A stretch of 63,181 nt of DNA, the filler included, from Thraustochytrium aureum (taxonomy: Eukaryota): NCBI GenBank assembly GCA_012862495.1. It is 7 parts of 5 records of this genome, joined end to end, with 100 filler letters (N's around TTAATTAATTAA, not from the genome) between each part and the next. Parts side by side here need not be neighbours in the genome. Positions count along the whole stretch, not along the records: positions 1 to 11,007 come from BLSG01000093.1; 6 more parts are not named here. One strand, 5' to 3'. This document shows, piece by piece, positions 7,901-8,431 of this stretch (its first letter is position 1; each line of letters opens with the position of its first letter). The notes below the pieces were generated by a model. It saw only the letters and a list, made by a program, of their open reading frames with translations. It ran no database searches and was not told the origin of the DNA. Made by a program: the position numbers and the translations under genes.

Positions 7901-8431
7901 GTGTTTGTAGTCGCCGGCTTTGCGCTGGGCCGTCAGCAGCGGGTCGAACCCGAGTGGGAGTTTTAGCGTTTCGTCCAGCTTGGCCGTGGCCTTTGTGGCT
8001 TCCAAATTGCCCACCCGCTTGTTCACGACGAGCATTTCCTGGGTCTGGAGCTCGAGTTCCTTGGCCTGGCTTGCCATTGCCTCGGCCTGGGCCTCCAGCT
8101 CCTTTGCCTGGGTCTCGAGTTTGCTCAGTGAAATGACATCCACGCACCGGTGGAGCTCCTTCTCCAGTCCTTTCAGCTTGTCTTGCATGCTCTTGGCGAA
8201 AATAAACTGGTGAATGCGAGCGAACGGGCGCCTGCTCTGCACTTGGTCGAAGAAGGCGAGGCTGTCGCGCAGCACTGCGCCGATCGCGCCCGACTGCTCT
8301 GGAGCAATGCCCTCCAGCAGGGGCACCAGTTTGATGATGTGCCCGCTCAGCTTGTCCGTATCGCGCCGCAGCTCGCGCACCGTTAGAGCTTGCTTGAGCG
8401 CCAGCTGCGCGAGGCTTGCAATGTCCGCCAT
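4914..8431 (-). CDS. NLR-like STAND protein: MLKL/HeLo-like four-helix N-terminus, NACHT NTPase, ~12 WD40 repeats (HET-E/NWD-like); one frameshift near 7685 and an internal gap
   Basis: Start MADIASLAQ at 8431. Motifs: GTREAMLEDVRNW, Walker A GPAGFGKS, AAHFF/KFDD across an A6 homopolymer shift, Walker B VVVVLDALDE. C-terminal repeats GH-x-V-x-AVA-S-DG-RI-SGS-D-TVRVWD. Confidence 0.85.

Follow-up and report, generated by a model that had tools for sequence, protein, structure and literature searches.

A NACHT-WD40 receptor gene of Thraustochytrium aureum with a probable MLKL-like helical N-terminal domain

Receptors that combine a HeLo-like head, a NACHT ATPase and WD40 repeats are documented in fungi (PMC4986451, Table 2), where this architecture and NLRs with MLKL-like heads are described as common (excerpts of PMC4986451, PMC9815663 and PMC12258605). 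In the HeLo and HELL domains, the first helix shows transmembrane propensity (PMC10197012, in excerpt). The Podospora proteins HET-E and HET-D (HNWD) are also built on a NACHT-WD40 body; according to the parts of the sources cited here, HET-E kills via a HET/TIR domain (PMC12881547), and the internal conservation of the HNWD WD40 repeats exceeds 85% (PMC4986451). As to protists, the available part of a survey of 67 of them reports no homologues of necroptosis regulators found by simple similarity search (PMC7539657). Among the matches listed in our literature search, which mostly lay outside the subscription journals, no paper dealt with NLRs of the MLKL-like type in stramenopiles, thraustochytrids included. 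Oomycete MLKL_N clusters, nevertheless, exist in the ESM Atlas.

In the window, that is, the whole 63,181-nt stretch of Thraustochytrium aureum DNA that was analysed, we found a gene on the minus strand whose frame opens at the ATG at 8431 and continues for 252 residues until the first stop. Its product begins with an N-terminal helical domain (residues 1-104; 8120..8431), a probable MLKL-like four-helix bundle, followed by a heptad-repeat linker (residues 105-150; 7982..8119), a predicted and possibly brace-like coiled coil in which the modelled helix continues to residue 129. The first part of the NACHT ATPase (7688..7981) was recognized by its motif and by alignment with relatives, and bears the Walker A sequence GPAGFGKS (7790-7813, residues 207-214), which fits GxxxxGK[ST]. 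At a six-A run (7682..7687) the frame shifts by one base, so that the second part of the NACHT (7387..7683) with the Walker B sequence VVVLDALDE (7450-7476) lies in the next frame; this sequence fits the NACHT consensus hhhhD[GAS]hDE as given in an excerpt of PMC12258605. The post-break piece scored 41.7 bits (E 1.8e-10) with NPHP3_N, a NACHT-type Pfam model whose cut-off is 24.8, and PF05729 stayed below its own cut-off in each NACHT half taken alone. The helical and winged-helix portion of the NACHT falls into a run of 420 N (6967..7386). Beyond it, the end of the helical region and then the WD40 repeats, from about 6674, extend to the stop codon (4914..6966), the repeats probably making up two propellers; Pfam recognized 11 WD40 stretches at 4917-6965 (E 7.9e-110), which form the C-terminal repeat superstructure. 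All three visible pieces of the gene align colinearly with seven relatives, and the layout is therefore beyond chance; no stop codon occurs within these pieces, and both Walker motifs are intact. The protein is thus a single-chain NLR-type NACHT-WD40 protein with a helical N-terminal domain. In its best reading, an MLKL-like-NACHT-WD40 architecture long known in fungi is here extended to a thraustochytrid, a representative of a little-studied lineage.

As far as the excerpts cited above present the all-in-one NLRs of fungi, whose heads are HeLo-like or, in basidiomycetes, MLKL-like, these share with the window protein a helical effector, a NACHT of the hhhhD[GAS]hDE type and a WD40 sensor. The protein differs from them in that its closest NACHTs belong to Hondaea, 'Durusdinium'-labelled and metagenome proteins, none of them fungal, and in that its head lacks both a profile match to the fungal families and, in the model, an N-terminal extension before helix 1. 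With animal MLKL (PF22215) and plant MLKL/MCAfunc, it likely has in common the four-helix executioner fold at the N-terminus and the helical linker after it. However, animal MLKL comprises a pseudokinase and depends on a kinase trigger, whereas the window protein has neither, its switch being the fused NACHT. MLKL proper, with its RIPK3-activated C-terminal pseudokinase, was ruled out, as NACHT and WD40 follow the head. The term 'necroptosis-like', applied to this protein when it was read from the sequence alone, thus covers the likely executioner fold and nothing of the pseudokinase module.

A comparison with HET-E had been drawn as well, and we abandoned it. The window protein shares the NACHT-WD40 body with HET-E and HET-D, but the head of HET-E is a HET/TIR one, and its repeats are near-identical, whereas those of the window protein lack high internal conservation (mean identity 42%, maximum 67%, ten repeats compared). 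Membership in the HNWD family was ruled out by the all-helical head without a HET or TIR match and by repeats reaching at most 67% identity. Since the 42% identity is far below the 85% of the HET-E type, the repeats would more likely sense a fixed ligand or a guarded host protein than serve a rapidly changing distinction of self from non-self. Plant CC-NLRs (ZAR1/NRC with MADA; RPW8-type CCR) likewise mount a helical bundle on an oligomerising STAND ATPase; their body, however, is NB-ARC-LRR instead of NACHT-WD40. The window protein starts with M-A-D and matches 5 of the 13 fixed MADA positions, and a score of 5 or more is reached by 6 of the 785 stretches of the window that start with Met. 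As L9, L13 and L17 are all unmatched (PMC6944444, in excerpt), a MADA-type CC-NLR was ruled out.

The frame break near 7685 falls inside the six-A run. Among the public contigs of three runs (X1-X3, one study, one sample), some pieces agree fully with the window (7390-7543, 7766-8180 and 8182-8527), and among the matches listed from these runs no identical contig spans the A run; diverged copies in the same runs have one base fewer than the window at this point. The listed runs comprised none of RNA, which speaks neither for nor against expression. In the same window, the SRP54 gene (13249-14929, plus strand) slips out of frame by one base at a G run (13622-13625), with Pfam SRP54 positions 2-24 in one frame and 27-196 in the following one. 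Because SRP54, an essential gene, bears the same kind of break, the frameshift in the NLR gene is likely an assembly error. By eye, the frame also changes in four or more additional long genes of the window. Frame changes were noted in a fumarase gene recognized by Pfam (about 42170-42200, minus strand) and, by eye, at about 24197 and 50750 (both plus strand), in genes that we take to resemble an RCC1-repeat protein and an IP3-receptor-like channel. The region of the gap measures about 740 nt in two relatives vs. 433 in the window, i.e., it is about 300 nt too short here, so the gap is either undersized or hides a deletion. Alternatively, the locus might be a copy in decay within an otherwise active family; the frameshift, perhaps along with a deletion in the gap, would then be genuine, and no full receptor would be produced. 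NLR families undergo fast turnover, which counts toward such decay together with the unspanned A run and the short gap; against it speak the three visible pieces free of stop codons, the preservation of both Walker A and Walker B, and the breaks in SRP54 and in the at least four other long genes that shift frame by eye. We consider a decaying copy improbable, and the NLR gene likely to be intact in the organism.

The sequence-only reading had placed an amphipathic helical N-terminus and a short coiled coil ahead of the NACHT, and this part of it was borne out. In both single-sequence AlphaFold2 models (pLDDT 65 and 59, pTM 0.4) residues 1-104 are all-helical, and heptad-like repeats (residues about 105-150) come after the helical domain, followed by the NACHT and the WD40 repeats. 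Helix 1 (residues 1-18) combines an amphipathic pattern with mild hydrophobicity (mean 0.34, moment 0.34). Residues 67-71 form a loop and residues 69-79 an amphipathic segment, yet both weak models run residues 72-107 as one helix. The peptide previously singled out as resembling the MLKL helix-4/brace region (residues 60-102) would correspond to the end of helix 3, a short connecting helix and helix 4, and the heptad linker after it would be brace-like. The diverged copies in X1-X3 preserve the head, which they overlap at 8171-8254 and from 8348 onward; among the differences listed for residues 1-110, each scored alone, 7 of 10 fall on the third codon position and 6 leave the residue unchanged. 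This comparison excludes 13 rows at 6615-6852. One related copy joins the head to the NACHT, its linker being 21 nt, or one heptad, shorter between 7963 and 8171. These copies may be either paralogues or derived from a related organism.

Residues 1-110 gave no match in Pfam, NCBIfam or PADLOC. No family was listed for them in Pfam, where MLKL_N (PF22215) has a 27-bit cut-off, and the head as a curated PF22215 member was thereby ruled out. Among PDB sequences, no MLKL-related chain matched the head to E 10. A word search of 5.8 billion proteins found no homologue of the head, its matches reaching only the start of the NACHT, and a full HMMER scan of 1.84 billion representatives gave 15 matches, the NACHT-bearing ones of which align best from residue 66 onward. 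One HMMER match, at residues 9-60, was to a bacterial Ig-repeat protein unrelated to the head and was set aside. Relatives of the head were absent from the metagenome, viral and prokaryote contigs searched, where the single locus obtained (L001) turned out to encode an unrelated bacterial P-loop protein. Two sets of prokaryote genomes, 4 and 401 in number, contained no MLKL_N match above the cut-off.

By structure, both head models, themselves of low confidence, align with up-down four-helix bundles over 80-125 residues (Z 8-12, rmsd mostly 2-4 Å). The top matches are designed proteins (Z 10.9 and 11.9), none stands clear of the others, and HPt and FAT domains are also among them. No MLKL, HeLo or RPW8 chain occurred among the matches listed (at most 50 per search), and tomato NRC3 appeared at rank 24 with a non-significant E of 2.6. 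For the killer family of four-helix bundles proposed for the head, these searches thus gave no profile match, generic four-helix bundles at low model confidence by structure, and no MLKL, HeLo or RPW8 among the matches listed. In MLKL and HeLo-like domains, a short perpendicular helix typically lies between helices 3 and 4 (PMC9815663, in excerpt); the head models are also devoid of it. In our judgement, neither the single-sequence models, weak as they are, nor the absence from these lists excludes MLKL.

Support for MLKL kinship came from a feature search in the ESM Atlas with residues 1-115 as a query, which returned 30 matches. The best three clusters scored 0.93 each and shared 182, 177 and 184 of 256 features; with shuffled proteins, scores of at least 0.9 arise in 4-10 per 100 and at least 170 shared features in 1-2 per 10, these rates applying to whole proteins and our query being a protein part. 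In the set at rank 2, to which 7 of the 30 matches belong, MLKL_N is assigned to 22% of the members, mostly Oomycota; the other named sets carry MLKL_N on 57% (score 0.89) and MCAfunc on 97% (0.86) of members. MLKL_N and MCAfunc were the only named families among the 30 matches, Goodbye and NACHT_N being absent. The 21 matches without a named family include two shown in detail, mostly from Basidiomycota, and this commonest taxon of the top unnamed clusters is a further likeness to the fungal NLRs.

The same search was applied to the head (residues 1-125) of P0008, a metagenome NACHT-WD40 protein of the same group that is full-length as stored. This head has no significant pairwise similarity to that of the window protein (z -0.8), matched nothing relevant among PDB sequences and gave a weak Rx_N match (E 0.062). 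In the Atlas it retrieved similar clusters, with MLKL_N as the sole named family (10% of members, 156 features), and the two heads apparently share one cluster (127 residues, 69 members). Moreover, the helix-by-helix hydrophobic spacing is alike in both heads, and across the four helices of the window head we take it to agree with that of MLKL. The head might instead be an unrelated amphipathic four-helix bundle, resembling MLKL by convergence or chance, as the profile and structure searches, either empty or yielding generic bundles (HPt, FAT, designed proteins), would allow. Since the Atlas returned MLKL_N for two dissimilar heads, and the single-sequence models have too little power to speak against MLKL, we find this explanation quite improbable. 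An MLKL-type fold kinship of the head is, in our estimation, probable, because the family had been named before the Atlas test returned it. Thus, the MLKL-like domain claimed from the sequence alone retains the backing of the Atlas features, obtained with two heads, and lacks that of a profile or structural match.

The relatives shed light on the position that the head occupies. The word-search matches at the NACHT start comprise five proteins labelled 'Durusdinium trenchii', and the 15 representatives include two proteins of Hondaea fermentalgiana, a thraustochytrid, as well as more 'Durusdinium', metagenome and HEPN-NACHT proteins, one of the latter named as coral. Few introns interrupt the densely packed genes of the window, and the genes of dinoflagellates are rich in introns; the 'Durusdinium' label may stand for a protist that was sequenced together with the dinoflagellate. 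Our literature search yielded no paper joining D. trenchii, a thraustochytrid and contamination. A NACHT tree, built after 14 of the 29 stored proteins had been set aside (short, redundant or unrelated ones among them), set a 12-row group with the window apart from four HEPN-bearing proteins, one of them coral, with a support of 100/100; this holds for the group as a whole, the window's place inside it not being fixed by the tree.

When the heads of seven relatives were cut out and scanned, TIR_2 was found in five, above the cut-off in P0007, P0011 and P0016 and below it in P0009 and P0015; the remaining two were P0003, without a TIR match, and P0008, whose head is helical. The N-termini of P0003-P0006 are near-identical heads of about 150 residues in the slot where relatives carry TIR; that of P0003, the one scanned, may represent a degenerate TIR domain. 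As relatives of the same group carry TIR at this position, the head of the window protein occupies a swappable effector slot, just as in fungal NLRs, where effector heads are exchanged between related NACHTs (PMC4986451, Table 2). The single-chain NLR layout put forward in the sequence-only reading therefore proved real in its domain order, both Walker motifs and WD40 repeats, with the effector slot backed by the TIR heads of relatives. A broader and rather doubtful suggestion is that thraustochytrid-like marine protists possess a modular NLR immunity, where one NACHT-WD40 clade would swap TIR and MLKL-type pore-forming heads. If so, a free-living unicellular stramenopile would possess a lytic, necroptosis-like suicide defence against its viruses, in parallel to the fungal system.

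For the locus as a whole, we lean slightly to the reading that a likely intact gene encodes a NACHT-WD40 protein with a likely MLKL-type bundle, and that this protein is a predicted one-piece membrane-damaging NLR. By analogy with the NLR family, ligand binding would free the NACHT from an inactive state imposed by the WD40 propellers, nucleotide exchange would then drive NACHT oligomerisation, and the NACHT ring would cluster the front domains via the heptad linker. Judging from MLKL, HeLo-like and plant coiled-coil domains (excerpts of PMC10197012 and PMC12881547), the amphipathic helix 1 would be released into the membrane, whereupon ions would leak and the cell would die. Such a death would most plausibly protect against viruses or against parasites living inside the cell. 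Another possibility is that the head has the MLKL-type fold and yet does not kill, acting as an oligomerisation or partner-recruiting module, as is possible for the fungal Goodbye-like domains. Fold kinship does not fix function, and a killing role is withheld for Goodbye-like domains in the available part of PMC9815663; helix 1 is not strongly hydrophobic, and it does not match in register the three leucines on which killing by plant NRC4 depends (PMC6944444, in excerpt). On the other hand, the N-terminal extension, a hallmark of Goodbye-likes (PMC9815663, in excerpt), is missing from the head, and its named Atlas neighbours are MLKL_N and MCAfunc, neither Goodbye nor NACHT_N. A non-killing module thus seems unlikely to us.

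If the membrane-damaging reading is true, the killing module would reach past animals, plants and fungi to a free-living unicellular lineage, where it has diverged too far for Pfam to recognize. For asking if unicellular eukaryotes defend themselves by lytic suicide, the head offers a small domain open to direct test.

Several other features were noted in the window. Its parts are connected by 100-base joins (44 N, 12 bases, 44 N) at 11008-11107, 16670-16769, 42617-42716, 57806-57905, 59884-59983 and 61451-61550, the one at 11008 containing a short linker with stop codons; since the window consists of concatenated contigs, the gene order across the six joins carries no biological evidence. A fragment at 11109-12278 (plus strand) contains a SWIM zinc finger (Pfam, E 6e-5) and is, we assume, possibly a remnant of a Mutator-type transposase. 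Just upstream of the NLR gene, a small Cys-rich ORF (8729-9271, minus strand) has a signal-peptide-like start and no Pfam match. On its other side, a WD40-rich gene (736-4540, plus strand) lies tail-to-tail with the NLR gene and changes frame near 2280 and 3705. Its predicted product, with a hydrophobic, signal-like start, numerous repeats, a Ser/Pro-rich stalk and, ahead of an N run, one more hydrophobic stretch, looks like a cell-surface beta-propeller protein, which would be unusual for WD40.
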